Virus record (IMG/VR): IMGVR_UViG_3300017613_001174
Length of the DNA: 42,133 bases
From: a virus
Direction: 5' to 3' (one strand)
Both the position numbers and the translations under genes were made by a program. The notes below the pieces were generated by a model. The model ran no database searches and was not told where the DNA came from. It saw only the letters and a list, made by a program, of their open reading frames with translations. This document shows positions 11,416 to 28,672 of the stretch, piece by piece. Numbering within the stretch: position 1 is the stretch's first letter; each line of letters starts with the position of its first letter.

Positions 11416-11418
11416 TGC

Positions 11419-11447: not shown

Positions 11448-11453
11448 ATTTAC

Positions 11454-11617: not shown

Positions 11618-11626
11618 GTGTGAAAT

Positions 11627-11809: not shown

Positions 11810-11823
11810 TCGGCTCTTTTTTT
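11796..11823 (+). terminator. Rho-independent terminator
   Basis: agagcc (11797-11802) pairs with ggctct (11812-11817), 9-nt loop, then a T-run to 11823. Confidence 0.65.
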
Positions 11824-12178: not shown

Positions 12179-12700
12179 ATGGAAAAAATGATAAAACATA
12201 GTCAATTAAGAAAAGCAGCAATTAATCGTTTTAAAGAAGAGAATTTCACAATATCAAACAATATTTCCTATCGGGATCTTGCTAGTATTATAAATATAGC
12301 GACTGGCTGGGGTGGTGTTTTAAAGAAGAGCAAAAAACAAGTATATAAAGAGAAAATAAGGCGATTTTATTATGAAACTCCAAGCATTGACAATACTAAG
12401 GTAAATTTTTTAAAGTATCAGCAAGCGAAAATTCCTAAAAAGAAAGAATTTTGTCAAACGGATGATTTTTTAGGTTCGTTTGAGTGGCGTAGGGTGAGGT
12501 TTGAGGCATTAAAGAAAAATAATGGTTGTTGCGAGCTTTGTGGCAGAAATAAGCATGATGATATTAAATTAAATGTTGATCATATCAAACCCAGGAAAAA
12601 ACACCCTGAATTAGCTCTTGATGTGAATAATTTACAGGTTTTGTGTAATGAATGCAATCATGGTAAGGGTAACTGGGATGAAACGGATTGGAGGAAATGA
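12179..12700 (+). CDS. HNH endonuclease (the terminase-associated type seen in cos phages)
   Basis: WRRVRFEALKKNNGCCELCG...VDHIKPRKKHPELALDVNNLQVLCNECNHGKG. Confidence 0.85.
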   Translation: MEKMIKHSQLRKAAINRFKEENFTISNNISYRDLASIINIATGWGGVLKKSKKQVYKEKIRRFYYETPSIDNTKVNFLKYQQAKIPKKKEFCQTDDFLGSFEWRRVRFEALKKNNGCCELCGRNKHDDIKLNVDHIKPRKKHPELALDVNNLQVLCNECNHGKGNWDETDWRK

Positions 12701-12900
12701 AGCAACCGTTATCAGAACATAAAACCCAATTAAAAGAAATCAAAAACTGGCTAAAAAAAGAGCACAGTTATTTAGATGTATTAAATCAAAGACTTGCTGA
12801 GAGGGACCGTGAATTTAAATTTTACATGAGACAATACGAAACAGCTCTGGGAAGCGGGAAGAAATCATTTGATCGAAATGATTACCTGGTGAAACAATGA
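12697..12900 (+). CDS. Hypothetical protein
   Basis: ATGA overlap with the HNH stop. Confidence 0.55.
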   Translation: MKQPLSEHKTQLKEIKNWLKKEHSYLDVLNQRLAERDREFKFYMRQYETALGSGKKSFDRNDYLVKQ

Positions 12901-12914
12901 GAGGGAGGTAACAG

Positions 12915-13214
12915 ATGTCAACATTTACAGTAAAAGATATGGAAGAAGCAGCACAAAAAATGAAAGAGTTTTCGCATTTTGACACAATTATAGGCCATCC
13001 GTCGGTTCTTAATCCCATTGGCGATATACCGGGGATCAGTATTGTTGGCAATCCAACATTAACAAAAACAAAGCAAACGAAATTTCCATGTTCAAAAAAG
13101 AAACGAATTCGTAAAAAATTTGCAAAAAAATACACAAAACAGGTTCCGAGTGACGAGGTTTATTTATTAAATACAGATATATTTAACCGATGGAATCCAC
13201 GGTGGGAGATATGA
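12915..13214 (+). CDS. Hypothetical protein with a basic K/R-rich segment
   Basis: RBS gagggagg. Confidence 0.6.
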   Translation: MSTFTVKDMEEAAQKMKEFSHFDTIIGHPSVLNPIGDIPGISIVGNPTLTKTKQTKFPCSKKKRIRKKFAKKYTKQVPSDEVYLLNTDIFNRWNPRWEI

Positions 13215-13239
13215 TGCAAAATTGAAGGGGGATGAATAA

Positions 13240-13536
13240 ATGTCAACAAAACACACGTTTATATCAAAAGACGGTCATAAAACTAAAGTTTTAAGCCCGA
13301 CAAAGGCTATCCGAGAGAAATGTCTTGAATGTTCATGCTGGCAAAATGAAGAGGTTAAAGAATGTCCGGCGACCGATTGCGCCTTGTATCCGTTTCGGTT
13401 CGGGAAAGATCCGGGTCGTAAAAAAGTTGTTATGAGTGCTGAAAGAAAAGAGACGCTTAAAAAACAGTTAGAAACGGGAAGGAAAACGATGCAGGAATCA
13501 AATCCTATGCGTTTTGGCCCTACTGGCAGTCATTAA
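13240..13536 (+). CDS. Cys-rich conserved phage protein
   Basis: KAIREKCLECSCWQNEEVKECPATDCALYPFRFGK. RBS aaggggg. Confidence 0.65.
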   Translation: MSTKHTFISKDGHKTKVLSPTKAIREKCLECSCWQNEEVKECPATDCALYPFRFGKDPGRKKVVMSAERKETLKKQLETGRKTMQESNPMRFGPTGSH

Positions 13537-13628
13537 AATCAGAATAAAATTAAAAAGGCATAGGTAGACAAGGGGTGAGTGAATAAGACATCTTAAAACG
13601 CACGCGAGAGCTTTGAAGGAGGCAAACG

Positions 13629-13907
13629 ATGAAATTAACAAAAACAATCCCAGAGAGAAAGAAAACTGTTAAATTCAAATGGGCGTATCGTGATTCCATG
13701 CAGGCAACAGCGGGTTATTTTAAGGCTCGGAATAGTTTGAGTGGAAAACGCCGGGGAACTATGACAAAATGTGACTGGTGTCAGAAAAAGTTTAAAAAAG
13801 ATGAATGGTTTGCTTTGGCACAACCAGAACAAGGACAAACAGGTCCCACAAGGAATTGGTGTTTGTGCGATGATTGCGCAAAATCTATTGGAGCACCGAG
13901 GAGATGA
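13629..13907 (+). CDS. Zinc-binding small protein
   Basis: RBS gaaggagg. CDWC...CLCDDC. Confidence 0.65.
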   Translation: MKLTKTIPERKKTVKFKWAYRDSMQATAGYFKARNSLSGKRRGTMTKCDWCQKKFKKDEWFALAQPEQGQTGPTRNWCLCDDCAKSIGAPRR

Positions 13908-14374
13908 TAAAAAATAATTTATCAGAATATGAGCATCAGGTCCAGGTGTTCGAATGGGCGAAAATGATGGAAGTTCAAAAGCCAGAGTTAAAACTATTGA
14001 ATGCGTCGCTTATGGGGGTTCATGTTTCACTGAAGTTATTAAATAAATATAAAAAAGCGGGAGTTAAAAAAGGTTATCCTGATTTGTTTTTACCGGTTCC
14101 CAGAGGGGAGCATCACGGGCTATTTATTGAACTAAAAAAAATTGGTGGTAGAAAGCCAAAAGACGAACAAAAACAATGGTTAGAAGATTTACAAGCGCAG
14201 GGTTATGATTGTTACACATGTTTTGGTAGTGAGCAAACTATTTTTGTAATTATATCGTATTTGAATGGCAAGAAGTATGAGCGTTGTCCGGGAAGAGGTG
14301 CAATAGATTTAACTCTAAAAACCTCAGAACTCAAACGCTGGAAACCATCTGACATTAACAGCAAAAAATTCTAA
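13904..14374 (+). CDS. VRR-NUC domain nuclease
   Basis: ATGA-coupled ATG at 13904 after gaggag. EHQVQVFEW...GYPDLFL...GLFIELKK...Q..WL..L (PD-ExK core). Confidence 0.75.
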   Translation: MIKNNLSEYEHQVQVFEWAKMMEVQKPELKLLNASLMGVHVSLKLLNKYKKAGVKKGYPDLFLPVPRGEHHGLFIELKKIGGRKPKDEQKQWLEDLQAQGYDCYTCFGSEQTIFVIISYLNGKKYERCPGRGAIDLTLKTSELKRWKPSDINSKKF

Positions 14375-14441
14375 AATCACTAAAAGAGCTCGGCCTATCA
14401 TCGACTGAGCTCGAAAAACGAAAGGCTATGAGGTATCGGTA

Positions 14442-14663
14442 ATGGAAGACATTCAAGGGGCCATATTTGATTATGGTATTGGCGAAATGCATATCGTTCA
14501 GTTAACCCAGGACCAGCTAAAAGATGTGATCAAGCGCTATCCATATGAGCGGATCTCCACTGTTGGGGAACGTTCTAAACGCTCTATCAGCAGCTATCGT
14601 ATAATGTCATTACGGCGAATAGCCGCCATTAATAAAGCCGCGACAGACTGGTTGGAGTATTAA
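14442..14663 (+). CDS. Hypothetical protein
   Basis: ORF with a weak RBS (gagg). Confidence 0.5.
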   Translation: MEDIQGAIFDYGIGEMHIVQLTQDQLKDVIKRYPYERISTVGERSKRSISSYRIMSLRRIAAINKAATDWLEY

Positions 14664-14869
14664 ATCCACGCCCGGCTCCGAGGCGTTGTATCGGGTTCTC
14701 CTTTCGCCCGGCTGCCGTCACGGGTTAAGTAGCAGCGCACAGGGACGCTTGCGAAGGCGGCACTCGGCTACGACCAGGAATTATGAGCCACAGAGGTAAT
14801 GAAACCCAGTAAGTGCTTGCGAGCCAGGATAAAAATTGAAACCATTCTACCGATGCGAAAATCTTTTTC

Positions 14870-14908
14870 TTGACAAACCCGTAACCATGTGAAACACTTG
14901 TCTAATAT
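14870..14908 (+). promoter_or_regulatory. Possible promoter upstream of the packaging genes
   Basis: TTGACA at 14870-14875, but no good -10 at 17-18 nt. TAATAT at 14903-14908 is too far away. Confidence 0.25.
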
Positions 14909-14968
14909 CTGGTTATTATTAGGCGAGCGTTTTTTTATGTATTCAACAAATGATTAACAAAGTGTGTT

Positions 14969-15343
14969 ATGGGAAATCCAAACTGGGTACAGGGCGTTTC
15001 AGGGAACCCAAATGGAAGACCAAAAGGGGCGAGATCAAGGAACCAGGGCGACCTATTAGACCGTATTGTGGATGTTTGGAACGCTCTCGAAAATGACGAT
15101 TCTACAAAGCTTGAGACTCTCGCAAAGGAAAACCCACAATGGTTCTATAAGCACTTTCTATCCAAGATGATACCCCGCAATATCGATATAGGGCTATTTG
15201 CTGGGAGGTCCAGCGACCACAACACAATTACAGATGCAGACCTAATCGGCATTATCCGTAATGGCAATGGCAACGGTAAGCAACCACCAGAACCGAAGTT
15301 AAAAAGGGCTGGAAACGGTTCGACACGCTCACATAAAAAATGA
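14969..15343 (+). CDS. Putative small terminase / DUF5681-like protein
   Basis: N-terminal GNPNWVQGVSGNPNGRPKGARSRN motif. Lies immediately upstream of TerL. Confidence 0.5.
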   Translation: MGNPNWVQGVSGNPNGRPKGARSRNQGDLLDRIVDVWNALENDDSTKLETLAKENPQWFYKHFLSKMIPRNIDIGLFAGRSSDHNTITDADLIGIIRNGNGNGKQPPEPKLKRAGNGSTRSHKK

Positions 15344-15350
15344 GTGATAA

Positions 15351-16823
15351 ATGGGCCAAATATCTCCTAAAATAGCCGCAAAGCTCCTTAGACACCGTAG
15401 ATTATGCCGTTCAAACCTATCCCCATTTGTACGTGGCACCTTCCAAATCGTTTCCCCAGGCGACCAGTATAAGCATAATTGGCATATAGATGTTATCTGC
15501 GAGCACTTGGAGGCCGTATATAAAAAGCAACTATTCCGGCTTATTATAAACATGCCGCCGCGTTATATGAAATCCATATCGGCCAGCGTGGCATTTCCGG
15601 CATGGGTACTCGGCCAGGACCCGACTCAGCAAATAATGTGCGCAAGTTATTCCCATTTCCTTGCATTTAAACATTCAGGTGATTGTCGCTTAACAGTAGA
15701 AAGTCCCTGGTATCATTCTATTTTCCCAAATACTAAATTACAGATCGGCAATATCGAAAAACGGAAGTTTGAAACAACGGCAAAGGGCCATAGAGTCTCC
15801 ACGTCAGTGGGTGGCTCCACGGTTGGATTGGGTGGCAATATTTTAATAGTTGATGACCCGATTGACCCTGAACAGGCCTATAGCGAATTAGAGCGCGAGC
15901 GGTCAAACCGCTGGTATGATCAGACGTTCAGCACTCGGCTAAACGATAAAAAAACCGGCGCTATCATAATCATTATGCACAGGCTCCACCAGAATGATCT
16001 GTGCGGCCATGTATTAAAAAAAGCTGCCGATGATTGGACGGTTTTAAAGATACCCGGTGAATTCAAAAAAAAAGCTACTTATTGCGTAAAGTCTGTTACC
16101 GAAATTGCCGGGGCGCGGAAACGCAAGAAACATATTAAAAAAGATTCGTTGTTGCACCCTGACTATGAGGGCCGGGTTGAGATAGAACGAGCTAAAACAA
16201 CCCTGGGCAGCTATGGCTATTCATCACAATACCAACAGAACCCGTCTCCGGAAGGCGGCGGCATAATCAAACTAAAGTGGTTTGGGCGCTATAAATCGCT
16301 CCCGCCAATGAATGAGGTTGTGCAGGTCAGCCAGTTTTGGGACACCGCACAAAAATCCGACGAGGTATTACACGCTCCCTGGGTATGTGGCACATGGTAT
16401 TCGACATACACCCACCATTATCTGGTACATATTTATCGGGACTGGATGGACTATCCCACCGGAAAGCGCACATTAAAAAACCTGGCTACGAAATGGAAAC
16501 CCCACCAGATAGTGATCGAAGACAAGTCCACCGGCCAAAGCCTTATACAGGAGGTTGCAGGATTACCCACAATCCCGTTTGAGCCTGACGCCGACAAGAT
16601 AACCCGACTCAGCACCGAAAGTCCGCTGGTCGAGTCCGGCATTATCATACTGCCGGAAGAGGCCAACTGGCTATTTGAATTTGAAGAGGAAATCCAACTA
16701 TTTCCGAACTCGACATATAAAGACCAGGCTGATATGCTATCTATGGCGCTTAAGTTTTTCCGTACACGATTTCTAACTAACACGATCAATATAGGGGCCG
16801 GGGCCTCATCAATACCTCAATAA
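15351..16823 (+). CDS. terL: Terminase large subunit
   Basis: P-loop-like MPPRYMKS, Walker B ILIVDDPID, a C-terminal nuclease-like region, and the expected size and position. Confidence 0.9.
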   Translation: MGQISPKIAAKLLRHRRLCRSNLSPFVRGTFQIVSPGDQYKHNWHIDVICEHLEAVYKKQLFRLIINMPPRYMKSISASVAFPAWVLGQDPTQQIMCASYSHFLAFKHSGDCRLTVESPWYHSIFPNTKLQIGNIEKRKFETTAKGHRVSTSVGGSTVGLGGNILIVDDPIDPEQAYSELERERSNRWYDQTFSTRLNDKKTGAIIIIMHRLHQNDLCGHVLKKAADDWTVLKIPGEFKKKATYCVKSVTEIAGARKRKKHIKKDSLLHPDYEGRVEIERAKTTLGSYGYSSQYQQNPSPEGGGIIKLKWFGRYKSLPPMNEVVQVSQFWDTAQKSDEVLHAPWVCGTWYSTYTHHYLVHIYRDWMDYPTGKRTLKNLATKWKPHQIVIEDKSTGQSLIQEVAGLPTIPFEPDADKITRLSTESPLVESGIIILPEEANWLFEFEEEIQLFPNSTYKDQADMLSMALKFFRTRFLTNTINIGAGASSIPQ

Positions 16824-16833: not shown

Positions 16834-19035
16834 ATGGGTATATTTGATATTTTTAGAAAAGACAGTGGCCAGCCGGATCAGCCAGCGCCGGTTCCCACCG
16901 GAGAGGTCGGCTATTCATTTTCCACTATATACACCAGCGGTGATTTCCCACGGTACAACCCCGATAGCCTTTTGATCAACCGAGGCCGGGCCATATATGA
17001 CAAAATGATGGAGGACGACCAGGTAAAAGCGGTAATGCTGTTCAAGCAGATGGCCGTGGTATCCCGCAAGTATTTTTTCGATGTCAAGGTATCGGATGAT
17101 GGAGTTAAAGATACGGAGCAAGAGAAGATAGCTGATTTTTTCCAGGTAGTTATCAACTGTATTGTGGGGTCATGGTCCGACAAACTGATCGAAATTTTAT
17201 CTGCTATGAAATATGGGTTTTCTGTTTGCGAGAAAATATTTATTCCCGTAAAGTATGATTCCCGCGAGTACTGGGGGCTGCAGGACATAAAGCTTCGCCC
17301 GTTTAATTCGTTTGATGGCGGATTTAAAACAGACAAGCATGGAAATATTACCACAATAGTGCAAATGACCGACGATGCAACCGAAATTAAAATACCGCCG
17401 AACAAGGTGATTCACTTTGTATATCAGCCGGATATAGATAGGCATTATGGCGAGAGTGATCTTCGGACCGCATACCGGCCGTATTGGTCTAAAGATGTGG
17501 CAATTAAGTTTGAGAATATCCACCTGGAACGTCATGCTCACGGTTTTATATGGGCACAGACTGACCCGGCCAAGGGCGCTTTAACCAGTAAGCAGATATC
17601 AGACCTTGAATCCGTACTAGACAATATTACGGCAAAAACATCCTTGCATGTTCCGGCATCCGTTGAAATCAACACGATCCAACCGCTACGGACAGACGCC
17701 TATAATCTCGCAATCCAGCGGCATGATAAGGCTATCGCAAAATCCTTACTGGTTCCCAACCTACTCGGCCTATCAGAGCAAGGCTCCACCGGGAGCTATG
17801 CGCAAAGCTCAACACAGTTAGAAGCGTTTTTTTGGATACTGGACTTTATGGCCAATCGTTTGGCCGAGGCATTAAACGAGCAGTTATTTCGAGACCTTTC
17901 GATATGGAACTTCGGGACAGAAGATTTTCCACAGTTTAAATTTGAGCCGATCTCAGACTCCAAAAAGCTTGAAATCATCAAACAGTGGAACGAGATGGTC
18001 AAGGGCCACTCGGTTACGAAATCAGATTCGGACGAGGCGTATGTACGTCAGATTATGGACTTTCCCAAAAAAGAGGAGCAGGGCGAATTGCCCGACGATT
18101 CTGATCATCTTCCGGTCGAGCAACCAGATGAAGTTGAACTCAGCGATTGGCTTTCCGGGAAGGACCGGCAGTTAATAAAAGAATTTGCAGAAAGCCCATG
18201 GATGCGCCGGGTAAATTTTGTGAAGATCGAAAAAGGTTTAAATGCTCAGGATATGGAATTTTCCAGGGAACTATCTATGGTCATGGGCCAGGTGCGCCTA
18301 TCACTTGAAAAACAAATAGTGAGTGTTGGTGGCACCCGGAGCTGGGGAAACGTAAACCCCAAAGAAGTCGGGAGCATAAAAATCCCGGCGACTCTCGTGT
18401 CAAAGATCAGAAAGGTGATCCGCACGAATACCGAGGCGTCATTGAATAGCAATTACGAAACGGCGAGGCGCGAGCTACCAGTTAAAAAGTTTGCAAAGAT
18501 AAACCCTGGGATGACAAAAGACAAAGCCATGCAGTATCTATCATCTGCCGCAATGCGAGGGGCACAAACGCTTGATCACGATGTGATAGACGCTATCCGT
18601 ATCGTTTTGCAGAATGCGATTAAATACGACAAGAGCCTACGAGACACCATCGCCTCACTTAATGACAATACGACCTTGGCAACCACATTACCGCAAATAG
18701 ATGCTGCCGGTCGCGCGGTGAATATACCAGCAAGGCTTGAGACCATAGCACGCACTAATACCGCTGATGCTATGAATCAGGCCAGAACGAGTCTATTTAA
18801 TAATCCAGAGCTGAAGGGGTTTGTCCAAGCGTTTGAATATGCAGCGATTCTGGATGATAGGATAACTGATATATGCGAGCATTTAAACGGGAAAAAACTT
18901 AGGGACTTTGCCAACTACACCCCGCCAAATCATTTTAATTGTAGGTCGATATTAATTGCGATAACAAAGGTCGATGATTGGAACGGGAAAGAGTCGGCGC
19001 CACCTTCACAACGGCCACAAAAAGGTTTTTATTGA
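16834..19035 (+). CDS. Portal protein (Mu gp29/DUF935-like) fused to a Mu F / SPP1 gp7-like head morphogenesis domain
   Basis: Portal-like N-terminal ~430 aa. C-terminal RTNTADAMNQAR...DDRITDICEHLNGK...PPNHFNCRS is a MuF signature. Confidence 0.8.
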   Translation: MGIFDIFRKDSGQPDQPAPVPTGEVGYSFSTIYTSGDFPRYNPDSLLINRGRAIYDKMMEDDQVKAVMLFKQMAVVSRKYFFDVKVSDDGVKDTEQEKIADFFQVVINCIVGSWSDKLIEILSAMKYGFSVCEKIFIPVKYDSREYWGLQDIKLRPFNSFDGGFKTDKHGNITTIVQMTDDATEIKIPPNKVIHFVYQPDIDRHYGESDLRTAYRPYWSKDVAIKFENIHLERHAHGFIWAQTDPAKGALTSKQISDLESVLDNITAKTSLHVPASVEINTIQPLRTDAYNLAIQRHDKAIAKSLLVPNLLGLSEQGSTGSYAQSSTQLEAFFWILDFMANRLAEALNEQLFRDLSIWNFGTEDFPQFKFEPISDSKKLEIIKQWNEMVKGHSVTKSDSDEAYVRQIMDFPKKEEQGELPDDSDHLPVEQPDEVELSDWLSGKDRQLIKEFAESPWMRRVNFVKIEKGLNAQDMEFSRELSMVMGQVRLSLEKQIVSVGGTRSWGNVNPKEVGSIKIPATLVSKIRKVIRTNTEASLNSNYETARRELPVKKFAKINPGMTKDKAMQYLSSAAMRGAQTLDHDVIDAIRIVLQNAIKYDKSLRDTIASLNDNTTLATTLPQIDAAGRAVNIPARLETIARTNTADAMNQARTSLFNNPELKGFVQAFEYAAILDDRITDICEHLNGKKLRDFANYTPPNHFNCRSILIAITKVDDWNGKESAPPSQRPQKGFY

Positions 19036-19041: not shown

Positions 19042-19752
19042 GTGGTAAAATTAAATACTATAACAACGATTGAACTTTCATCTGCTTGTAATTTAAAATG
19101 CAGTTATTGTGTGAACAGGCTCATTGGTGTAAATTCAGATAGAGTACCAGGAATAATGAGCGATTCGGTGTTTAGTGCATCGGTAAAGCTTTTGAAGAGG
19201 TTGGTTGATAGAGGAACCCAAAAAGAAATCAGTTTAAACGGGAACGGCGAGAGCTTTTTAGACACATCACTCATAGAACGTGTTAAAACAGTAAGGAAGA
19301 TTCTCGGAGATAACAACTTATTGTTAATGTCAACAAATTCTACGCTTGTGACTAAAGAGATTGCTATTTCGTTGAAAGATGCGGGTTTGGATGAGATTCA
19401 TACGTCGATACATAAACCGGAAGCGGTTAGAAAGGCGTTGCCGATATTTTCTGATGCAGGGTTGAAAACCGTTATCAATGCAGGGGTTATTATATTTTCT
19501 CATAACTGGGCAGGGCAACTTGAAGATGAAAACAAAGTGCCCAAGGAAAGGTTGCCGGACATTCAATGCGACCCGCTTATTGACGGTAGAGGGTACGTGT
19601 CGGCAGAGGGGAACATAAGCCCATGTTGTTATGACTATCGGAATATAGGAGTATTTGGGACTGTATTTAATAAAGATATACTGGATAAAGAATACGGCGC
19701 ATATGAGTTGTGTCGTGGATGCCATCAGGTAATACCACCGGAATTATTATGA
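19042..19752 (+). CDS. Radical SAM enzyme with a SPASM/twitch-like C-terminal Cys motif (paralog 1)
   Basis: CNLKCSYC (19087-19110), NGNGESFLD, C-x13-G-x4-C (CDPLIDGRGYVSAEGNISPC) and CRGC. GTG start. Confidence 0.8.
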   Translation: MVKLNTITTIELSSACNLKCSYCVNRLIGVNSDRVPGIMSDSVFSASVKLLKRLVDRGTQKEISLNGNGESFLDTSLIERVKTVRKILGDNNLLLMSTNSTLVTKEIAISLKDAGLDEIHTSIHKPEAVRKALPIFSDAGLKTVINAGVIIFSHNWAGQLEDENKVPKERLPDIQCDPLIDGRGYVSAEGNISPCCYDYRNIGVFGTVFNKDILDKEYGAYELCRGCHQVIPPELL

Positions 19753-20486
19753 AAATTATTGAGACAATCAACACCATTGAGCTTTCGTCGGTCTGTGACA
19801 ATAAGTGCCAGTATTGCCCGGCGCGATTGCAGTCCGAGCATAGACTTACTGGCTTTATGTCATGGGCGACATTTAAGCACGCTATTGATAAAGCCTTAGT
19901 CTTTGCGCGAGCCGGAACACAGCGGGAAATCAACCTGTTCGGGGTAGGTGAGCCAACGCTGCATAAATATATAGTGGCTATGGTACGCTATGCCAGGGAG
20001 CATTTACCGTTTAATCAGGTTTTGCACCTGAATACCAATGGCAACACCATGACGATGCAACTCGCCAAGGACCTAAAGGACGCCGGCATCACGTCGATTG
20101 ACATAACGGGCCACGATCATGCTGTAACTGCAAAAACAATTAAAATATTCCGAGAATTAGAAATAGTTGGAAATTTGTCATATGATTTTGTCACTGCTCC
20201 GAACAACTGGGCGGGTCAAGTGGATTGGTTTGAACCTGACACCCGGCTACCAGTATATCGTAATAATCCCTGTCCGTGGCTGGAACGTGGCCAGGTTATG
20301 GTGATGAGTGACGGCCTTATCACGACTTGCTGCATCGATGCCTTTGGGCGAAACGTTATTTGCGACATATCAGACAACCTTGAAAATTTTGAGGTTGCAG
20401 AAAGTGAGCTATGTAAAAGCTGTCATCACAAAATCCCGGAAACATCATCAAAATTTGAGCAGACCTTAGACTTGATGGCGGTGTAA
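19749..20486 (+). CDS. Radical SAM enzyme with a SPASM/twitch-like C-terminal Cys motif (paralog 2)
   Basis: ATGA-coupled ATG at 19749. CDNKCQYC (19794-19817), FGVGEPTLH, C-x13-G-x4-C (CPWLERGQVMVMSDGLITTC) and CKSC. Shares TIELSS, GTQ.EI and NWAGQ with paralog 1. Confidence 0.8.
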   Translation: MKIIETINTIELSSVCDNKCQYCPARLQSEHRLTGFMSWATFKHAIDKALVFARAGTQREINLFGVGEPTLHKYIVAMVRYAREHLPFNQVLHLNTNGNTMTMQLAKDLKDAGITSIDITGHDHAVTAKTIKIFRELEIVGNLSYDFVTAPNNWAGQVDWFEPDTRLPVYRNNPCPWLERGQVMVMSDGLITTCCIDAFGRNVICDISDNLENFEVAESELCKSCHHKIPETSSKFEQTLDLMAV

Positions 20487-20507: not shown

Positions 20508-21752
20508 ATGCCATATGATAGCAATGAAAAATTACCGGATACCGTAAAAGTTCTTCCAGATGCTGCACAAACGATCTGGCGCAATGCGTTTAACTCGGCC
20601 AATAAGTCTGGCAAAGATGACGAGTCTTCCTCCAAGATCGGATGGGGTGCCGTAAAGAACGCTGGCTGGTCAAAGGGTCAAGATGGCAACTGGGCCAAGT
20701 CGCAGAGTGACACCGGCCACGAATTCGATGTTGAGGTGATGTCGGTCGGAACCTGGAACGGTGACAAGTTCACAACCGAACATCTACAAAACCTTGCCCA
20801 CAACTTCGATGCGTTGAAGGATACGGTTAAGCCATTTTTAAAGCTCGGCCATAACCAGAAACAGGAAGATGGTAAACCCTCCATGGGCTGGGTTAAGGCG
20901 CTGAAGGTATCAGGTGACAAACTTATTGCAACATTAACACAAGTGCCTGAAGTTGTTTATAAAGCGATCAAGGGTGGGCGATATAAACGCCTATCAGCAG
21001 AGATATATTTCAATATGCGCGACAAGGCCGGTAATATCCGCAAGCGTGTATTACGAGCGGTCGCACTCCTCGGCGCCGATGTTCCCGCAGTCGATAACCT
21101 GGCAGATATAGACGCCTACTTAACTCAATCCATTCTGAATGAACAGTTTGACAAGGTAATGGCGTATACCTGGCAAATGAATAATTTTGATAAAAAAGAA
21201 CTAACTATCAACGGAATTGTAAACCAGACAAGAGGTGATACCATGGCTGATGATGAAAAGAGGGATAAAGAAATAAAAGAGTTTAAGGACCGCCTTGAAC
21301 TCGCTGAAAAAGAAAAGGCGGACGCCCAAAAACTGGCGGATGATAACGCCACCAAGCTGAAGGAATTCGAGGAAAATAAAGCCGCCGAAGAAAAAGCATC
21401 CAATGAGAAGGAATTTAAGGCTTTCTGTGAGGCGGCCGTGAAAGGCGGAAAGCTTACGCCGGCATCCAGGGACGAGCTCGTCAAGGGTTTCGTCTATGAT
21501 GCAAAGCAGGGGTATCTGTGTCCGTTCAGCGTGTTTAAAAAATACGTGGAAGACACAAAAATCATCCTTGATATGCGCGAGTATGGGCACGATACCGACA
21601 ACACAAATTATGGGGATGGTGCCACGGTCCAAAAGATCGTCGATACCAAAGCCACGGAATACGCAGCAAAGCATAAGGTTGATTACAGTACCGCAATGCT
21701 CGCTGTTCTGAACGATAACCCGAAACTTGCAAACGCTTACGTCAAAGAATAG
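20508..21752 (+). CDS. ChaB-like N-terminal domain fused to a Mu gpI-like prohead protease/scaffold
   Basis: MPY..KLPDTVKVLPDAAQTIWRNAFNSA...GWGAVK...GNWAK matches the ChaB pattern. GKPSMGWVKALKV...GRYKRLSAEIYF is Mu I-like. The C-terminal half has a charged coiled coil. Confidence 0.75.
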   Translation: MPYDSNEKLPDTVKVLPDAAQTIWRNAFNSANKSGKDDESSSKIGWGAVKNAGWSKGQDGNWAKSQSDTGHEFDVEVMSVGTWNGDKFTTEHLQNLAHNFDALKDTVKPFLKLGHNQKQEDGKPSMGWVKALKVSGDKLIATLTQVPEVVYKAIKGGRYKRLSAEIYFNMRDKAGNIRKRVLRAVALLGADVPAVDNLADIDAYLTQSILNEQFDKVMAYTWQMNNFDKKELTINGIVNQTRGDTMADDEKRDKEIKEFKDRLELAEKEKADAQKLADDNATKLKEFEENKAAEEKASNEKEFKAFCEAAVKGGKLTPASRDELVKGFVYDAKQGYLCPFSVFKKYVEDTKIILDMREYGHDTDNTNYGDGATVQKIVDTKATEYAAKHKVDYSTAMLAVLNDNPKLANAYVKE

Positions 21753-21784: not shown

Positions 21785-22159
21785 ATGGCAACTGAAAATA
21801 AAAATTGGTTCCTGACCTTTGAAGCGGCAGAGGATCTTTCATCGTTGGAGTACCAGATTGTTACGATTGCTGACGACAAGATTGCCAATGATGGCCAGGA
21901 AGCCACTGGGGTACTGGTATCTAAACCGAAATCAGGTGAACATGGATCGATCATGTTTATGGGGATCGGAAAGGCCAGGGCCGGTGGAGCAATCGCAAAA
22001 AATGGTGTGTTTAAGACCGTCACATCCGGGTATATCTCGGCGGCAACTTCTGGTGGCTGGGTAAATGGTCGCGCACTTGAGGCAATCACGTCAGGGAGTA
22101 TCGGTAAAATTTTCTGGCATGGCGTAAACCAGTATCAGGTTAGTTCGATTGATGGATAA
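21785..22159 (+). CDS. Head decoration-like protein (DUF2190-type)
   Basis: Small Gly-rich beta protein between the protease and capsid genes. RBS aggagg. Confidence 0.55.
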   Translation: MATENKNWFLTFEAAEDLSSLEYQIVTIADDKIANDGQEATGVLVSKPKSGEHGSIMFMGIGKARAGGAIAKNGVFKTVTSGYISAATSGGWVNGRALEAITSGSIGKIFWHGVNQYQVSSIDG

Positions 22160-22175: not shown

Positions 22176-23138
22176 ATGGGAGCACGAGGACACGATTTAC
22201 ATATTGACCAGCCACTGAGCAACGTGGCAATGAGCTACAGGCCGGAGGGCATGATCGCTGATATTGTAGCGCCGGAGGTTCCGGTGCAAAAGCAATCAGA
22301 TTCATATACGATATGGTCACAAGCCGATGCCCTGCGGACTGAGGACGATAAACGAGCCCCGGGAACCGAGGCTAACCTGATCACTCGTGGTGTATCAAGT
22401 GATACGTATTTCGCCAATAACTTTGCGCTGAAATCCGCATTGACATTGGAGGACCGCGAGAATATGGACGCCGCTTTCATCCAACAGTTGCGAAACGGCA
22501 AAGTTGAATACATCAAAGATAAGCTGACCCTTAACTGGGAAAAACGTCTTGCGGACAAGGTGACGAGTGGCTCAAATGTTGGCAGCTATTCAACAATAGA
22601 TTCTGACTGGCAAGATTATACCACGGGCCAATCAGATCCTATCGGAGATATGCAAACGGCGATTACCAATGTTCAGGATGCCACCGGGTATCGTCCCAAC
22701 CGTTGCCTCATGGGTGGCCTTGCTTGGCGTCATTTCCGAAGGCATGAAGACGTTATCGATCTTTTGTATGGGTCCTCTGGCCAGGGCAAAGTCCGTTATG
22801 CCTCACGCGAACAGGCAAAGGAAATCTTCGAGGTGGATCAACTTATCATTGGTGAAACATACTACAACAGCGGCGCTGAAGGTCAAAGCCTAGCATTGCA
22901 ACATATGTGGTTAGATTATGTCTTGGTCTATTATGCACCTTCACGGCCCTCTCGGGAAACGCCCAGTTTCATGTATTCATTTCGTTGGAAAAAACCCGCT
23001 ATCCCAAATATGGCGGCAGAGGTTCATCCGTTCGACCGCAAGACAAAATCAGAGGAGGTCGAGCTTGGCTATTACCAGGACGAAAAAATCACTGGCGCTA
23101 ACCTGGGGTTTCTTTTAACTCATGTAACCAGCGTTTAA
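22176..23138 (+). CDS. Major capsid protein
   Basis: Size, position after the protease and decoration genes, strong RBS, and a strong hairpin downstream. Confidence 0.8.
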   Translation: MGARGHDLHIDQPLSNVAMSYRPEGMIADIVAPEVPVQKQSDSYTIWSQADALRTEDDKRAPGTEANLITRGVSSDTYFANNFALKSALTLEDRENMDAAFIQQLRNGKVEYIKDKLTLNWEKRLADKVTSGSNVGSYSTIDSDWQDYTTGQSDPIGDMQTAITNVQDATGYRPNRCLMGGLAWRHFRRHEDVIDLLYGSSGQGKVRYASREQAKEIFEVDQLIIGETYYNSGAEGQSLALQHMWLDYVLVYYAPSRPSRETPSFMYSFRWKKPAIPNMAAEVHPFDRKTKSEEVELGYYQDEKITGANLGFLLTHVTSV

Positions 23139-23171
23139 CCATCGTTCTTAACAGACACCCATAGCAGAGGA

Positions 23172-23199
23172 GCGACCAGTCTCACGCGAGACTGGTCGC
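23172..23199 (+). terminator. Perfect 12-bp hairpin after the capsid gene (attenuator or stabiliser; no U-tract)
   Basis: gcgaccagtctc acgc gagactggtcgc. Confidence 0.5.
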
Positions 23200-23220
23200 C
23201 ATTCAAACAGGAGTTATCAC

Positions 23221-23382
23221 ATGCTGCGCGATGATGCGATAAAAAAGGGCTTGATAAAGCCAAAGGATAAAGAAGAGGCCGACCGATTCGGGATGGATTT
23301 TCAGCCGGTCAACATACCGAAATCCGAAAGACCAAACGTGTCGACGACTCCAAAGTATCGGCATAAAAAGAAATCAAGATAA
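23221..23382 (+). CDS. 53-aa basic peptide (below the ORF-track cutoff)
   Basis: ATG 7 nt after caggag. Hand translation gives MLRDDAIKKGLIKPKDKEEADRFGMDFQPVNIPKSERPNVSTTPKYRHKKKSR. Confidence 0.35.
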   Translation: MLRDDAIKKGLIKPKDKEEADRFGMDFQPVNIPKSERPNVSTTPKYRHKKKSR

Positions 23383-23406
23383 AACAGGATATTGGGTGAT
23401 ATCTAA

Positions 23407-26325
23407 ATGAGAATAATATTTCATGTTGGTGGCATGCCTTTTAACGGCTCCACTATTTCGGATGGAAAGAGCCTCGGCGGGTCAGAAAGCGCCGGGTATT
23501 ATATGGCGAGGGAGATGGCCAGGTTAGGCCATGAAGTTGTAATTTTTACCTCGTCACCTGACACCGGTTTTTCAGATGGCGTGTTTTTTGAATGGATGGG
23601 GGAACGCTCGGAGCAATACCCGCTCGGCCACAGGTTCGACGTTTCCAGCAAGGTTCCCGCAGATGTAACTATCATCCAACGTATACCGTTTGCGTTCCGC
23701 AAGCCGATCAACTCAAAATTAAATATATGGTGGGTACATGATATCGGTTTGATGCGTCACTCCATGATCGTGCAGCAACAACTCGTTAATATCGATCAGA
23801 TATTTACCGTTTCAGAATTTCATAAAAACCAATTCGCAAAAGTGTTCGATATTCCAAAGCATATCATTACCGCAACATTCAACGGGGTTGATTATACGTA
23901 TCCTGAAGAACTGGAAGCGCAAAATTTACCACGGGTACCAAAGTCGCTGGTTTTTGCATCGAGACCTGAGCGAGGACTTGAAAACCTTGTGGGCCGCAAC
24001 GGAATAATGAAAAGCCTGCCTGATTGTCACCTGTATGTATGTGGGTATGACAATACCGTTCCCCAGATGAGGGACTATTACCGGTATTTATATAACAGGT
24101 GCGACCAACTGGACAATGTGACAAACCTTGGCAGCCTCGGTAAAAATGAATTATATAAGTTACTTGCAAAGTCGGAGTTGTGTGTATACCCAACCACCTT
24201 TGAAGACACCAGCAACATGATGTTGCTTGAATCCAATGCGGTCGGTACGCCGTTTATTGGGCCAAAGGATCGCGCAGCACTTCCGCAAACCGGCCATAAC
24301 GCCGGTGTGAAATTTGTGCCATTAAAAGACGGGAAAATCCACAAACAGGCATTTGTGAAATGTATAAAAGAATGTCTCGAAGCATCCACCTGGGATAGGC
24401 TCCACATTAAAGCGCTCGGCAAAGAACAGACATGGAAAGCGGCTGCTATGCAATGGGATCAGGTATTCAACGACCTGTTATATTATAAATGCAATGATAA
24501 AAGGCGTTTATACAAACACCTGGAACATCATAGCGATATCATTGCCATAGGTGAGGACCACCCGGCACCGGACATGCAACTTCTGGAAAGTGTTCTTCCC
24601 GGGTTCAGAAAAAACTACGAGTTTTTGTATAATAACGATTTCAAGGGCCACTATGATCGCTATTATGAGTATGAGGAAAGCAGGGGCGTAAAATATGGCC
24701 CTGAAGATCTAACCGGGCAGCCCAGGTTTGAGCACACGGCACGGCTGATTGATGAAATGGGTCCAGGTGCAATACTTGATTACGGATGTGCCCACGGACA
24801 TTATGTTATGAACCTTATGAACCGGTATCCGCATATACGTTTTTTCGGGGCTGATATAAACGCGAAAAACATAGAGATTGCGAGGCGTTGGGCACTTGAT
24901 GTCATTGGCGACAAGTCCGAGCAGGATCAGGCGCTGGACACGGTTAATAATTTGTTTTTTCAGTCAACAGCAGATGATGATTTTGACCTTGCTTGCAATG
25001 TGGACGTTATCTTGCTTCAGGAAATTTTGGAGCATGTTCCCAATCCGGGAACTTTGGTTGAACAGTTAAGTACGCACCTGGCACCGGAAGGGCATTTTTT
25101 AATATCGGTCCCGTATGGTCCATGGGAGGCCCTGGGGTATAAAAAACACCCTGGATGGAGAGCGCATATCCATCATATCGAACGTGAGGACCTTTATGAA
25201 CTATTTAGGGCACAGGAAGACTTTAAACTGATCGCGTTGCCACACAGAGACAATATGGGCCACTATATTGTCACGTTTAAGTATAACCCTGATATACCTA
25301 TCGGCAAAATCGATTATGTCCGCAAATTAAAACAACAGGCACCACGTGAAACATTATCAGTTTGCATGATCGCAAAAAATGAGCAGCACACTATTGGAAG
25401 GACCATTGAGTCGATAATAGATATTGCGGATGAAATAATTATAGGCCTGGATGAAACTACAACAGATGAAACCTACGCAGTGGCCATGCAGTTTGTTGGC
25501 CCTGAAAATATCATCCCGATTAAATCACCGATGGAAACCGGGTTCGCCGTGGCAAGGCAGGTAACTATCGATGCCGCTTCTATGGATTGGATATTGTGGA
25601 TTGACTGCGACGAAACTTTCGAGCAAGCTGAGAACCTACCGAAATACTTACGCAATAACTGTATGGATGGATATGGAATCAAGCAACACCACTATGCAGT
25701 TGAGCCTGCGGAGTTGTTTAAAACAGATTACCCCTGCCGGTTATTCCGCAATAATAAGGGCATGAAATTTTTTGGCTTTGTCCACGAGCACCCGGAAAAA
25801 GAAATGAACAAGGGCCCTGGTAAAACTCATCTTATCGATGACGTGGCTATTATGCATACCGGATATCCGACCGAGCAGGTGCGGCGGAAACGGTTTGAGC
25901 GCAATTTCCCGTTGATACAAAAAGATCGGGAGCTTAATCCCGATAGAAATCTTGGAAAATTCCTGTGGGTACGAGACCTCGCCCACTTCGCCCGGTACAG
26001 CATGGAGCAAAACGGCGGGGTTGTAACCCCACGGATTGAAGATGCAGCTGCCCAGGGAATTGAGATGTGGCGTGAACTTTTAAAGACTGGCGACCTTCGG
26101 CTGATCACGCAAAGTATCCCGTTTTATTCCGAATGTGTTTATCGATTAATGAACGGCAACGGCATTGATTTCACCCTGGCGATCACTTCGGGTAAGGGTG
26201 GCAATCGTTTTGTATTGCCGGACCGAAAGATCGAGGGTTTGTTTGCCAGCATCGAGGACATTAAAAAGCTAAATAAAGTTATCGTTGACAAGTCTGTCGA
26301 GCATTACGAAAATAAATATTATTAA
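23407..26325 (+). CDS. Tri-domain glycosyltransferase (GT4-like) - SAM methyltransferase - glycosyltransferase (GT2-like) fusion, 972 aa
   Basis: GGSESAGYYMAREMARLGHEV and FEDTSNMMLLESNAVGTPFIG (GT-B/GT4). ILDYGCAHG...EILEHVPNP (class I MTase, from about aa 456). LSVCMIAKNE...IIGLDETTTDET...WIDCDE (GT2, from about aa 650). Confidence 0.85.
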   Translation: MRIIFHVGGMPFNGSTISDGKSLGGSESAGYYMAREMARLGHEVVIFTSSPDTGFSDGVFFEWMGERSEQYPLGHRFDVSSKVPADVTIIQRIPFAFRKPINSKLNIWWVHDIGLMRHSMIVQQQLVNIDQIFTVSEFHKNQFAKVFDIPKHIITATFNGVDYTYPEELEAQNLPRVPKSLVFASRPERGLENLVGRNGIMKSLPDCHLYVCGYDNTVPQMRDYYRYLYNRCDQLDNVTNLGSLGKNELYKLLAKSELCVYPTTFEDTSNMMLLESNAVGTPFIGPKDRAALPQTGHNAGVKFVPLKDGKIHKQAFVKCIKECLEASTWDRLHIKALGKEQTWKAAAMQWDQVFNDLLYYKCNDKRRLYKHLEHHSDIIAIGEDHPAPDMQLLESVLPGFRKNYEFLYNNDFKGHYDRYYEYEESRGVKYGPEDLTGQPRFEHTARLIDEMGPGAILDYGCAHGHYVMNLMNRYPHIRFFGADINAKNIEIARRWALDVIGDKSEQDQALDTVNNLFFQSTADDDFDLACNVDVILLQEILEHVPNPGTLVEQLSTHLAPEGHFLISVPYGPWEALGYKKHPGWRAHIHHIEREDLYELFRAQEDFKLIALPHRDNMGHYIVTFKYNPDIPIGKIDYVRKLKQQAPRETLSVCMIAKNEQHTIGRTIESIIDIADEIIIGLDETTTDETYAVAMQFVGPENIIPIKSPMETGFAVARQVTIDAASMDWILWIDCDETFEQAENLPKYLRNNCMDGYGIKQHHYAVEPAELFKTDYPCRLFRNNKGMKFFGFVHEHPEKEMNKGPGKTHLIDDVAIMHTGYPTEQVRRKRFERNFPLIQKDRELNPDRNLGKFLWVRDLAHFARYSMEQNGGVVTPRIEDAAAQGIEMWRELLKTGDLRLITQSIPFYSECVYRLMNGNGIDFTLAITSGKGGNRFVLPDRKIEGLFASIEDIKKLNKVIVDKSVEHYENKYY

Positions 26326-26337: not shown

Positions 26338-26796
26338 ATGTACGCAACATATTCAGATTGTTCCGTTCGATACCCAATACTGAGCAAATGGAATCCGTCC
26401 AGTGTATCGGCTGTTAATTCGGACCTTGTATATTATGCCGAAAAAGAAATCGACGGTCGCCTGGCTTCACACTTTGCGGTGCCATTCACTGATGTGCCGC
26501 CGACCATATCCGACCTAACCATCGATTATGTATATCTGAAAATGTTGCGGTCGCGGGATCTGGATAAAGCCGCTGAGTTTGAAAAAATACTTGATGCCCG
26601 AATTGAACGGCTCAAGGAAGGCGAGGAATATATTTTTACCGAGTCAGGCACCACCATTGCACCTGCAGGTGCCAGTGATGGAGTATGGTCGAACACGAAG
26701 GACTATTACCCAGTTCATTCTATACTGGATGCCGATTCACCTTACGCCGGATTTGATTCGGATATGATAGACGACGAGGAAGACATCAGGAGCTAA
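26338..26796 (+). CDS. Head-tail adaptor (Mu gp36/DUF1320-like)
   Basis: MYATYSDCSVRY...AEKEIDGRLASHFAVPF pattern and position. Confidence 0.6.
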   Translation: MYATYSDCSVRYPILSKWNPSSVSAVNSDLVYYAEKEIDGRLASHFAVPFTDVPPTISDLTIDYVYLKMLRSRDLDKAAEFEKILDARIERLKEGEEYIFTESGTTIAPAGASDGVWSNTKDYYPVHSILDADSPYAGFDSDMIDDEEDIRS

Positions 26797-27709: not shown

Positions 27710-28672
27710 ATGGCTTACGGACAGGACGGACATTTCGGAATAGGTTTTCAGGATAGCATGGGCACCAGTCTCACCGATTCAATGGATTATTTCGGATTTG
27801 TATCTGAAACATTGACACAGAATATCGAGGAGTTGATGAGCGAGAGCCTATCATCCAGGTATGAGGAACCAGATGATTATGGTGGTATGCGGGAGATAGG
27901 CGGTGACATTGTCGGGGAAGTGCAGCCCCTTTCCTTTGGGAAGTTTCTAAAAGGATGGTGCGGCCAGGAGAGTGTTAGCTTTCAGGAAAGCTGTTACAGT
28001 CACTTGTTCGTACCGAGGCTAACCGACTGGCAAGAGGAAAACGCCGCACTTCCCCCAATGACTGTCGAGGTATACCGGGATACTGGGTCGGCATATCTTT
28101 ATTATGACGCAATGATCGATACGCTCAATATCGAAATCGCGCAGGGTGCGTTGATAAAATTTACAGCCGGGTTCAAAGGGTCTCAATTTTCATGGGCTGA
28201 AAAAACCACACCGGCCTATGATCCTGGGAGCTATTTCGCGTGGGACATTGCATCTATCAGCCTGGCGGGGGTGGCCATGACGGAATTTTCAAGTCTCAGC
28301 CTGAACTTTTCGAATAGCCTTGCAGGTAAAGCGTATATCGATGGCAATAAATACGCCTCCCGGATTCTGCGGGACGGTTTTAGGACCGGAGAAATTTCGG
28401 GCACACTCTTGTTATCCGGTGACGATGAGGCTCGGAATTTTAAAAACCGCACCAAGCAACGATTGCTTATATCTATCACAGATCCGACAACGGTAATGAA
28501 CCATCATAACCAGTTGATTATAGATATACCGAAAATGGTATATACCGAGTTCCCTGCGAACATATCTGGGCCCGGATTGGTGGAGGTGTCCTTTTCTGCT
28601 AAGGCCAAGTATGACTCGGATTCATCTTATGCCATGCAGTTTACACTGACAAATACCGTCGAGGCATACTAA
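27710..28672 (+). CDS. Major tail (tube) protein candidate
   Basis: Strong RBS aaggagg. Immediately upstream of the chaperone/tape-measure genes. Confidence 0.6.
   Translation: MAYGQDGHFGIGFQDSMGTSLTDSMDYFGFVSETLTQNIEELMSESLSSRYEEPDDYGGMREIGGDIVGEVQPLSFGKFLKGWCGQESVSFQESCYSHLFVPRLTDWQEENAALPPMTVEVYRDTGSAYLYYDAMIDTLNIEIAQGALIKFTAGFKGSQFSWAEKTTPAYDPGSYFAWDIASISLAGVAMTEFSSLSLNFSNSLAGKAYIDGNKYASRILRDGFRTGEISGTLLLSGDDEARNFKNRTKQRLLISITDPTTVMNHHNQLIIDIPKMVYTEFPANISGPGLVEVSFSAKAKYDSDSSYAMQFTLTNTVEAY

Follow-up and report, generated by a model that had tools for sequence, protein, structure and literature searches.

What would a tailed phage do with a single enzyme that joins two glycosyltransferases to a methyltransferase and is encoded beside its major capsid protein? 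We address this question for IMG/VR virus record IMGVR_UViG_3300017613_001174, a stretch of 42,133 nucleotides that we analyzed at its full length and refer to as the window. The gene concerned, here called the fusion gene, is one uninterrupted open reading frame (ORF) at positions 23407-26325 on the (+) strand, which starts with ATG and encodes 972 amino acids (aa). A preliminary description, made from the nucleotide letters, had proposed that the product places a glycan on virion proteins or, alternatively, on the host surface. We favor the first of these two targets, with a probability of roughly 0.55: judged from sequence, structural model, and analogy, the enzyme would modify the phage's own head proteins and give the capsid a short methylated glycan. 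What turns the choice toward the virion is the kinship of the GT2 glycosyltransferase module with the protein-modifying enzymes GmaR, SunS, and ThuS, the absence of a membrane segment, and the standing of the gene as a core gene of the head module. A literature search found no published description of this fusion family.

Domain architecture and protein-glycosyltransferase kinship

The translation contains every motif that had been quoted from a single open frame in the preliminary description (GGSESAGYY, LGHEV, FEDTSNMMLLESNAVGTPFIG, ILDYGCAHG, FGADI, EILEHVPNP, LSVCMIAKNE, DETTTDET, and WIDCDE), and the domain order read from them, GT4-methyltransferase-GT2, is borne out by Pfam domains that each exceed the gathering cut-off and by a confident AlphaFold2 model that shows three catalytic domains. 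The GT4 part matches Glyco_transf_4 (PF13439; residues 24-162, 33.0 bits versus a cut-off of 28.5) and Glyco_trans_1_4 (PF13692; residues 202-288, 27.3 bits versus 27), with PF00534 falling under its cut-off (22.1 versus 26.4 bits). Methyltransf_23 covers residues 446-602 (62.5 bits versus 27, E 5e-17), and Glycos_transf_2 (PF00535) covers residues 651-755 (55.7 bits versus 23.3, E 7e-15). The model, built from 66 full-length homologs, has a mean predicted local distance difference test (pLDDT) score of 91.8, with nothing below 50, and a predicted template modeling score of 0.90. Because this confidence is high throughout, the three domains appear to be held in a defined packing and not as beads on a string. 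We found no membrane segment in the fusion (maximum Kyte-Doolittle mean over 19 residues, 1.09), and the sequence suggests that the enzyme is most likely soluble, cytoplasmic, late-expressed, and trifunctional.

Conservation was scored over 66 homologs of 44-57% identity. In the GT4 domain, residues G24, G25, S26, E27, H111, D112, R186-G190, K246, and E275 are invariant and E266 is nearly so, the D/E-x7-E motif of GT4 enzymes ending at the invariant E275. A Foldseek comparison of residues 1-362 with the Protein Data Bank (PDB) returned MshA, BshA, PimA, WaaG, and glycogen synthases, with template modeling (TM) scores normalized to the target of 0.66-0.77. The domain thus has the GT-B fold, the E/D-x7-E motif, and the phosphate-binding Arg and Lys residues.

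The methyltransferase domain is invariant at D458, G460, A462, and G464 of motif I (L-D458-Y-G-C-A-H-G464), at D483, and at E542 and H543, as well as in a block specific to the family that comprises W573 and E574, W584 and R585, and H587. A separate model of this domain (pLDDT 88.9) confirmed the class I methyltransferase fold. Compared with the PDB, its profile aligns with nothing beyond the Rossmann core of many methyltransferases that act on small molecules, sugars, or peptides, such as UbiG and OvoM; WbdD is matched at 1e-8 and a D-glucose O-methyltransferase at 2.5e-8. The nearest folds to the domain model are the plantazolicin N-methyltransferase BpumL, which ranks at the top, EvdMO1 with D-fucose, and DnrK. 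From its context, we infer that the domain carries out sugar O-methylation. The GT2 domain, in turn, is invariant at D682, D733-x-D735-E736, H793-E794-H795, and H817, and residues R826, R829, and R832-N833 at the start of the tail are conserved across the same homologs. The catalytic signatures of all three domains are therefore invariant, which argues that all three activities are under purifying selection.

The kinship of the GT2 module emerged from phmmer searches against 177,635 distinct PDB sequences. The whole fusion gave six matches, and the four glycosyltransferases among them are GmaR (5.8e-13), SunS in two constructs (~2e-12), and ThuS (7.7e-11). The C-terminal 350 residues returned the same four only, with GmaR at 1.3e-13 over ~195 residues, SunS at 1.2e-12, and ThuS at 1.7e-11. 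Common to the fusion GT2 and these enzymes are the motifs xIxKNE, DEIIxxD-x-StD-T, F-x-x-AR, and W-I-x-x-ID-x-DE, and further R-x-FRN...F-x-G-x-vHE-x-P, H-tGY, and R-x-RN, with the alignment running on into the first tail helix; D733, D735, and E736 of the fusion align with IDADE of GmaR and IDADN of SunS. The best NCBIfam model for the fusion is the SunS peptide S-glycosyltransferase TIGR04195 at 1.6e-15, the next glycosyltransferase model reaching 8e-5. The top Foldseek match of the whole 972-residue model is also SunS (7msp; E 6.9e-15, TM(target) 0.62), which ranks ahead of all GT-B matches; 306 columns align with 7msp and 306-362 columns overall, for a chain of 333 residues. By sequence and by model, then, the GT2 module belongs to a GmaR/SunS-like subgroup of protein glycosyltransferases. 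GmaR is a Listeria enzyme that moves N-acetylglucosamine (GlcNAc) onto flagellin, and the authors of its structure propose that a helical tetratricopeptide repeat (TPR) region recognizes the protein substrate (PMC9638930). ThuS is an O/S-glycosyltransferase acting on peptides, and both SunS and ThuS modify Cys or Ser of glycocin peptides (PMC12457901).

The kinship extends into the C-terminal tail of ~170 aa, which had been described as of unknown function. That statement no longer holds for its start, which in the HMMER and Foldseek alignments and in the model corresponds to the helical region following the GT-A domain in SunS and ThuS; a SunS-like helical region would thus account for the tail at least in part. 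In the model, the tail consists of five helices (823-914), a β-hairpin, and a terminal helix, and its pLDDT exceeds 87 for the most part. Its likely role is in acceptor recognition or oligomerization.

Longer homologs of 1,200-1,640 aa form two groups, one with extra modules and one with large insertions. In the first, P0223, P0217, and P0247 carry an extra N-terminal methyltransferase, P0246 a second GT2 domain, and P0244 an internal duplication. In the second, insertions of ~270-390 aa occur at two sites, each inside a glycosyltransferase catalytic motif. The GT4 site lies in the D/E-x7-E motif (query residues 269-274) and is occupied in P0182 and P0236; the GT2 site lies between G and xVHEHP (query residues ~785-794) and is occupied in P0215, P0236, P0238, P0243, and P0265, so that P0236 carries insertions at both. 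Pfam calls inteins with HNH or LAGLIDADG endonucleases in each of the three proteins scanned of these six (P0182, P0215, and P0236). Conserved active sites of important genes are where inteins typically persist, and finding them in both glycosyltransferase domains is an indirect sign that both activities are of value to the phage.

Capsid linkage and candidate acceptors

To place the fusion gene among related viruses, we searched protein and contig collections. Among the matches listed in a first protein search were 120 homologs of 937-1001 aa and 44-56% identity, nearly all of them full-length and many on contigs of 35-47 kb. We also scanned 1.84 billion cluster representatives (50% identity) exhaustively with HMMER, which gave 664 matches at E ≤ 1e-30. 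The best 150 of these 664 all lie below ~1e-125 and most align end to end. More than 150 full-length homologs of 940-1030 aa align in this way, which rules out that the fusion arose by chance or through chimeric assembly. In IMG/VR, 225 viral contigs encode a relative.

Synteny was surveyed by tblastn of the structural proteins of the window against the related loci that we fetched. Recurrence of such fusions next to capsid genes, put forward as a check in the preliminary description, was confirmed: both genes were found in 87 loci, and every one of these has the capsid gene upstream of the fusion and in the same orientation; the median gap is 335 nt, and 68 gaps are shorter than 600 nt. A downstream gene resembling Mu gp36 was detected in 59 loci. 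The distance to it is at most 100 nt in 27 loci; the remaining loci have a wider interval, which is mostly 3-5 kb and reaches 5.5 kb. Loci were also selected by capsid only, taking 80 of 170 IMG/VR capsid relatives (47-75% identity to the capsid alignment); the fusion was present in 70 of the 70 loci long enough to judge, and none was without it. Because the fusion is linked to the capsid in both surveys, we regard it as a lineage-defining core gene of the head module and not as a sporadic moron.

About half of the relatives carry an insert of 3-5 kb between the fusion and the gp36-like adaptor gene (12932-16305 in locus L001, 12861-16004 in L002, 13029-15021 in L087, and ~20 others). Three proteins are encoded in the insert, one of ~520 aa that is rich in 'LSxxxxxND' repeats and two of ~176 and ~92 aa; they are possibly head fibers or extra decoration proteins. 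As a universal acceptor, these proteins are ruled out by their absence from the window and from about half of the clade.

By capsid, the nearest cultured relatives are Roseobacter phage CRP-6 and Pseudomonas phage KPP23, at 25-28% identity. Both have the same gene order (scaffold, ~125-aa protein, capsid, and small head-tail genes) without the fusion enzyme. A tblastn search of 50,697 GenBank phage records found no cultured relative with the fusion; its six partial matches comprise three to GT4 in Caudoviricetes sp. and three to GT2 in short 'Listeria phage' records. Most of the hosts appear to be Gram-negative bacteria of sediment or water. Metagenome-assembled genomes (MAGs) with binned copies, phage binning being unreliable, belong to Desulfobacterales, Desulfocapsa, 'Deltaproteobacteria', Gammaproteobacteria, Acidiferrobacterales, Flavobacteriaceae, Zixibacteria, and a cyanobacterium, and the NCBI copy of one homolog is on a 5-kb contig labeled 'MAG: Planctomycetota'. 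Copies inside long scaffolds of 982 kb (L088), 117 kb (L089), and 72 kb are probably prophages, and these integrated copies point to Gram-negative hosts; L088 and L089 come from MAGs of Desulfobacterota and Pseudomonadota.

If the enzyme acts on the head, the candidate acceptors would be the capsid protein, a 124-aa putative decoration protein encoded upstream of it, or both. Only size and position lead us to take the second of these for a head decoration protein; its KPP23 homolog, in the same position, is annotated 'virion protein'. The capsid protein has a clade-conserved Ser-rich loop, VTSGSNVGS, at residues 129-137 (window 22560-22586), and the putative decoration proteins share a clade-conserved C-terminal A-V-T-S-G-S-I-G at residues 101-108 (window 22085-22108), the peptide around it in the window being EAITSGSIGK. 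Both segments are altered in CRP-6 and KPP23, which lack the fusion, and the C-terminal motif of the decoration protein is absent there. A scan of 10,947 aa of ORF products from the window for the pattern [AVIL][TS]SG[SG] gave four instances, three of them in the capsid and putative decoration proteins, a count made post hoc. These sequences hint, weakly and after the fact, at V/I-T-S-G-S as a possible glycosylation sequon. Alignments of the capsid and putative decoration proteins show no conserved Cys in either, and an O-linkage is therefore likelier than a SunS-type S-linkage.

The mechanism that we propose would run during late infection. The GT-A module and the helical tail would bind capsid and/or decoration subunits as these are being made, and the GT-A module would attach a first hexose or N-acetylhexosamine to Ser/Thr from a host uridine diphosphate (UDP)-sugar. 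The GT4 domain, which is presumably retaining, would add one or more further sugars, and the S-adenosylmethionine (SAM) methyltransferase would methylate the glycan as a cap or decoration. In this scheme, the acceptor, the sugars, the order of the steps, and the benefit (shielding, stability, or reduced sticking) are those that we infer.

Several observations weigh against modification of head proteins. The position of the gene is suggestive and is no proof of substrate, and a glycan on any virion protein is a prediction from sequence and model. The methyltransferase fold does not tell sugar, peptide, or small-molecule acceptors apart. In one homolog, P0082 (882 aa), an in-frame deletion removes ~80-90 residues of the methyltransferase core (query ~480-561) and leaves both glycosyltransferase domains intact, so methylation may be dispensable in some lineages. 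The SunS equivalog model TIGR04195 scores the fusion at 56.9 bits (59.5 for the C-terminal fragment alone) versus a cut-off of 350, and because this is far under the cut-off, the GT2 module is a relative of SunS and not an equivalog or ortholog. The capsid protein is without the Ser/Thr-rich C-terminal extension that serves as a capsid glycosylation site in mycobacteriophages. Finally, four of the 91 loci with at least 1.8 kb of upstream sequence (L085, L086, L092, and L101) show no detectable capsid gene, so the linkage of capsid and fusion is not absolute. A PHROG scan of L085 and L092 found only a CI-like repressor, in L085. On this MAG contig, a full-length fusion homolog of 42% identity (9995-13036, +) lies beside the divergently oriented CI-like repressor gene (8289-9065, -).

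Genomic setting and competing explanations

The genes from head to tail form a module on one strand, and the fusion shares its strand with the whole structural operon (Table 1). The preliminary description had located the fusion between the capsid gene and a head-tail adaptor gene. The position and the capsid assignment stand; the adaptor is plausible, mainly from its position, with a weak Mu gp36 match, and it directly precedes a Neck1/tail-completion gene. The further statement that the fusion comes directly after the capsid gene needs a small correction: a spacer of 268 nt (23139-23406) with a hairpin and a small ORF lies between the two.

Table 1. Positions of the fusion gene domains and of other features in the window
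Feature	Position	Strand	Size or residues	Basis and remarks
Gene annotated as methyltransferase	3646-4260	-		Early region; PHROG 'methyltransferase'; sub-threshold Pfam Maf flagellin glycosyltransferase N-terminal domain (E 5e-4, 20.0 bits versus 23.5)
Mom-like DNA modification gene	10091-10525	+		Early region; Pfam Mom E 7e-16
DNA methyltransferase gene	10732-11415	+		Early region; PHROG 67 E 2e-55
Terminase and portal-MuF fusion	16834-19035	+		
Two radical SAM genes	19042-19752 and 19710-20486	+	236 and 258 aa	
Head protease/scaffold gene	20508-21752	+		Mu-like prophage I protein family; N-terminal ChaB domain (Pfam E 2.6e-9)
Putative decoration protein gene	21785-22159	+	124 aa	PHROG 673 E 2e-8, annotated 'head scaffolding protein', the sole family match
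Major capsid gene	22176-23138	+		PHROG 1005 E 1e-61; Pfam Phage_cap_E; lambda gpE-like
Capsid segment			128-139	KVTSGSNVGSYS
Perfect 12-bp hairpin after capsid stop codon	23172-23199	+		Fold -27 kcal/mol, z -4.0, 0/200 shuffles as stable
Lysine-rich ORF without Cys	23221-23382	+	53 aa	Between capsid gene and fusion
Fusion: N-terminal GT-B domain (GT4-type, presumably retaining)	23407..24492	+	1-362	Pfam, Foldseek, invariant residues
Fusion: helical linker and class I SAM methyltransferase core	24493..25290	+	363-437 and 438-628	Pfam, invariant residues, domain model
Fusion: GT-A (GT2) domain, GmaR/SunS type	25339..25866	+	645-820	Pfam, NCBIfam, PDB sequence matches
Fusion: C-terminal helical tail and stop codon	25867..26325	+	821-972	Model, HMMER and Foldseek alignments
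Head-tail connector candidate	26338-26796	+		Starts 12 nt past fusion stop; weak Phage_Mu_Gp36 (E 1.3e-4, below cut-off)
Tail-tube-like gene	27710-28672			Homologs match Pfam Phage_tube_2; followed by tape measure and tail genes
Two consecutive right-handed β-helix proteins	38804-40291 and 40383-42116	+		Tail end; Pfam Beta_helix and DUF5123

The hairpin in the spacer is not followed by a T-run and may act as an mRNA stabilizer or attenuator. In more than 20 related loci, the N-terminal ~25 residues of the 53-aa ORF product are found again ~55-180 nt past the capsid gene, and only this N terminus is conserved. Some relatives have two or three small ORFs in the spacer between capsid and fusion, one of them with a weak Rho_N match. 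Around the fusion gene, we found no promoter above shuffled expectation and none convincing as its own. A scan of the window for tRNA genes found none, and no sugar-nucleotide biosynthesis genes were recognized among its ORFs, many of which are without assignment.

Both radical SAM proteins carry CxxxCxxC, with a twitch/SPASM-type cluster of Cys residues at the C terminus, and their best NCBIfam matches are maturases of proteins or peptides from the radical SAM/SPASM group. Of 49 related loci, 15 hold the pair, 6 a single copy, and 28 none; in some loci, radical SAM genes adjoin the fusion instead. The same slot holds extra methyltransferases in L001 and L002, and in L001 also a sulfotransferase-like gene. 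The radical SAM genes could further modify virion proteins or the glycan. At the tail end of the window, the two β-helix proteins are probably polysaccharide-degrading tailspikes, and such tailspike-like proteins suggest a host coated with capsule or exopolysaccharide (EPS).

This setting also bears on explanations other than modification of the virion. One is that the enzyme glycosylates a host protein, whether flagellin, pilin, S-layer, or another surface protein, and thereby brings about superinfection exclusion or frees progeny from trapping. By sequence, the GT2 module is, after all, closest to the flagellin O-GlcNAc transferase GmaR, and prophage copies exist in the large bacterial scaffolds L088 and L089. 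We nonetheless consider a host protein an unlikely target: the gene lies inside the late structural operon, with 12 nt between it and the head-tail gene that follows and with no convincing promoter of its own, and it tracks one capsid lineage though the binned hosts are very diverse, when a gene aimed at a host protein would be expected to track the host and not the capsid.

Similar doubts attach to a role in building or modifying a polysaccharide or glycolipid (O-antigen, EPS, capsule, or seroconversion), with the methyltransferase capping the chain as in WbdD or WsaE. The combination of GT4, GT2, and methyltransferase is typical of polysaccharide clusters, the methyltransferase profile has the WbdD and D-glucose O-methyltransferase matches given above, the GT-B domain resembles WaaG and PimA, and the tailspike-like proteins point to a polysaccharide-coated host. 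Such an enzyme would nevertheless have to work here with no membrane segment or amphipathic anchor and beside no recognized flippase, polymerase, ABC transporter, or bactoprenol-linked glycosyltransferase; O-antigen, Gtr, or WbdD-type partner genes were likewise not recognized in the 42-kb window, where many ORFs have no assignment. By sequence, moreover, the GT2 module matches no polysaccharide GT2 enzyme in the PDB and matches such enzymes only weakly in NCBIfam, and the late-operon site speaks against expression in lysogens. Taken together, these points make a polysaccharide target unlikely as well.

A third explanation would have the fusion act with the radical SAM enzymes on a small molecule or on a glycoconjugate like a ribosomally made peptide with post-translational modifications (RiPP), for example a glycocin-like product of ORF 23221-23382. 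That SunS and ThuS are glycosyltransferases of glycocins, themselves RiPPs, and that the top fold match of the methyltransferase is the RiPP methyltransferase for plantazolicin lend this idea some color, as do the two radical SAM/SPASM-like genes 3 kb upstream and the conserved small ORF before the fusion. It is rendered improbable by the 28 of 49 related loci from which radical SAM genes are missing while the fusion is always there, by the lack of Cys and the conservation of only the N terminus in the small ORF, and by the failure to find a leader peptidase or exporter. Hypermodification of phage DNA by a glycosylated and methylated base against restriction can be set aside as very improbable, for although phage GT-A and GT-B enzymes that glycosylate hydroxymethylated bases are known (bioRxiv 10.1101/2023.12.21.572611; PMC13326640), the window yielded no hydroxymethylase, no TET/JBP enzyme, and nothing else that would activate a base, the Mom-like and DNA methyltransferase genes lie apart in the early module, the methyltransferase domain is not of the DNA methyltransferase type, the gene sits in the head module, and the GT2 relatives are protein glycosyltransferases.

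Glycosylation of head proteins can also be framed in a more far-reaching form, which we offer tentatively. Capsid glycosylation might be an obligatory step of head morphogenesis in a large global clade of ~40-kb tailed phages with Gram-negative, often anaerobic hosts, performed by a single assembly-line enzyme whose GT-A module reads a V-T-S-G-S-like sequon, and elaborated in many members by radical SAM/SPASM enzymes, extra methyltransferases, and a sulfotransferase. If this were true, the fusion would be the first core, and possibly essential, phage virion glycosylation enzyme outside Actinobacteria, and it would suggest a tool for sequon-directed protein O-glycosylation of bacterial type. 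Should the enzyme merely do for its own virion what the actinobacteriophage enzymes do for theirs, glycan-coated capsids would already be far more widespread than thought, fixed in hundreds of uncultured lineages of sediments, wetlands, and waters, with a bearing on how stable the virions are and how they adsorb to particles and mucus, and on grazing and immune recognition. A compact, soluble, self-contained module that can 'prime, extend, methylate', with a protein-recognizing glycosyltransferase of the GmaR/SunS type, would be attractive for cytoplasmic glycoengineering of proteins and phage particles. The intein-like insertions in the active sites, together with the strict capsid linkage, make the essentiality of capsid glycosylation directly testable.

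Comparison with known glycosylation systems

The closest functional parallel to glycosylation of the head comes from actinobacteriophages, in which phage glycosyltransferases and an O-methyltransferase are reported to modify capsid and tail tube proteins (Freeman et al. 2023, as cited in PMC11600133, PMC11256854, and PMC13313380). In the literature that we found, phage virion glycosylation has been shown only in a few actinobacteriophages, where it shields particles from antibodies. The preliminary description had referred to mycobacteriophage virion glycosylation by phage glycosyltransferases located in structural operons. The glycosylation is indeed reported, but the operon location is not established: cluster F1 mycobacteriophages (Che8) carry their glycosyltransferase genes close to the genome's 3' end (PMC11256854), and for cluster O, PMC11600133 describes three tandem glycosyltransferase genes that follow an O-methyltransferase gene. 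The window resembles these systems in pairing phage glycosyltransferases with a methyltransferase, here a presumed O-methyltransferase, and in a presumed glycan coat made in the cytoplasm from host sugar nucleotides. It differs in that the separate genes of the actinobacteriophages are replaced by one 972-aa polypeptide encoded next to the capsid gene, in that the hosts appear to be mostly Gram-negative and the capsid has no obvious C-terminal acceptor extension, and in that the fusion gene is core to its clade and not accessory. No actinophage match to the fusion was found at E ≤ 1e-5 in the 50,697 GenBank phage records, and the resemblance to Arthrobacter phage glycosyltransferases is that of a generic GT-B fold only.

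GmaR (PDB 22ao) shares with the fusion GT2 the motifs xIxKNE, DxxStDxT, FxxARN, WIxxIDaDE, HE, and HxGY, as well as the succession of a GT-A domain and a helical region that presumably binds a protein acceptor in its folded state. Unlike the fusion, GmaR (637 aa) has TPR, linker, and anti-repressor domains, is a host regulator that lacks GT4 and methyltransferase modules, and transfers just one GlcNAc. SunS and ThuS (PDB 7msp, 7msn, and 7msk) likewise combine a GT-A domain with a helical domain, and SunS is encoded by a prophage (SPbeta), but their acceptors are small Cys-containing peptides and neither is fused to a GT4 or methyltransferase domain.

WbdD and WbdA of Escherichia coli O9a and WsaE of the Geobacillus S-layer glycan represent the fused methyltransferase and glycosyltransferase enzymes that build and cap chains in bacterial glycan pathways. 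Like these enzymes, the fusion would unite glycosyl transfer and O-methyl capping in one polypeptide; unlike them, it has no kinase, coiled-coil ruler, membrane association, or lipid-carrier genes, and its GT2 domain is of the protein-glycosyltransferase subgroup. Among viral proteins, the best fold matches in BFVD are A0A6J5T3W3 (1119 aa, E 3e-23) and A0A6J5M7M7 (787 aa, with an FkbM methyltransferase, E 4e-21), both from uncultured Caudovirales. These proteins resemble the fusion as multidomain glycosyltransferase and methyltransferase enzymes of environmental tailed phages, but they are uncharacterized and differ from it in their low identity (14-15%), their domain order, and their FkbM type of methyltransferase. 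Set beside all of these systems, the fusion is proposed, by analogy, to work as known virion glycosylation does, with different enzymes joined in one chain.

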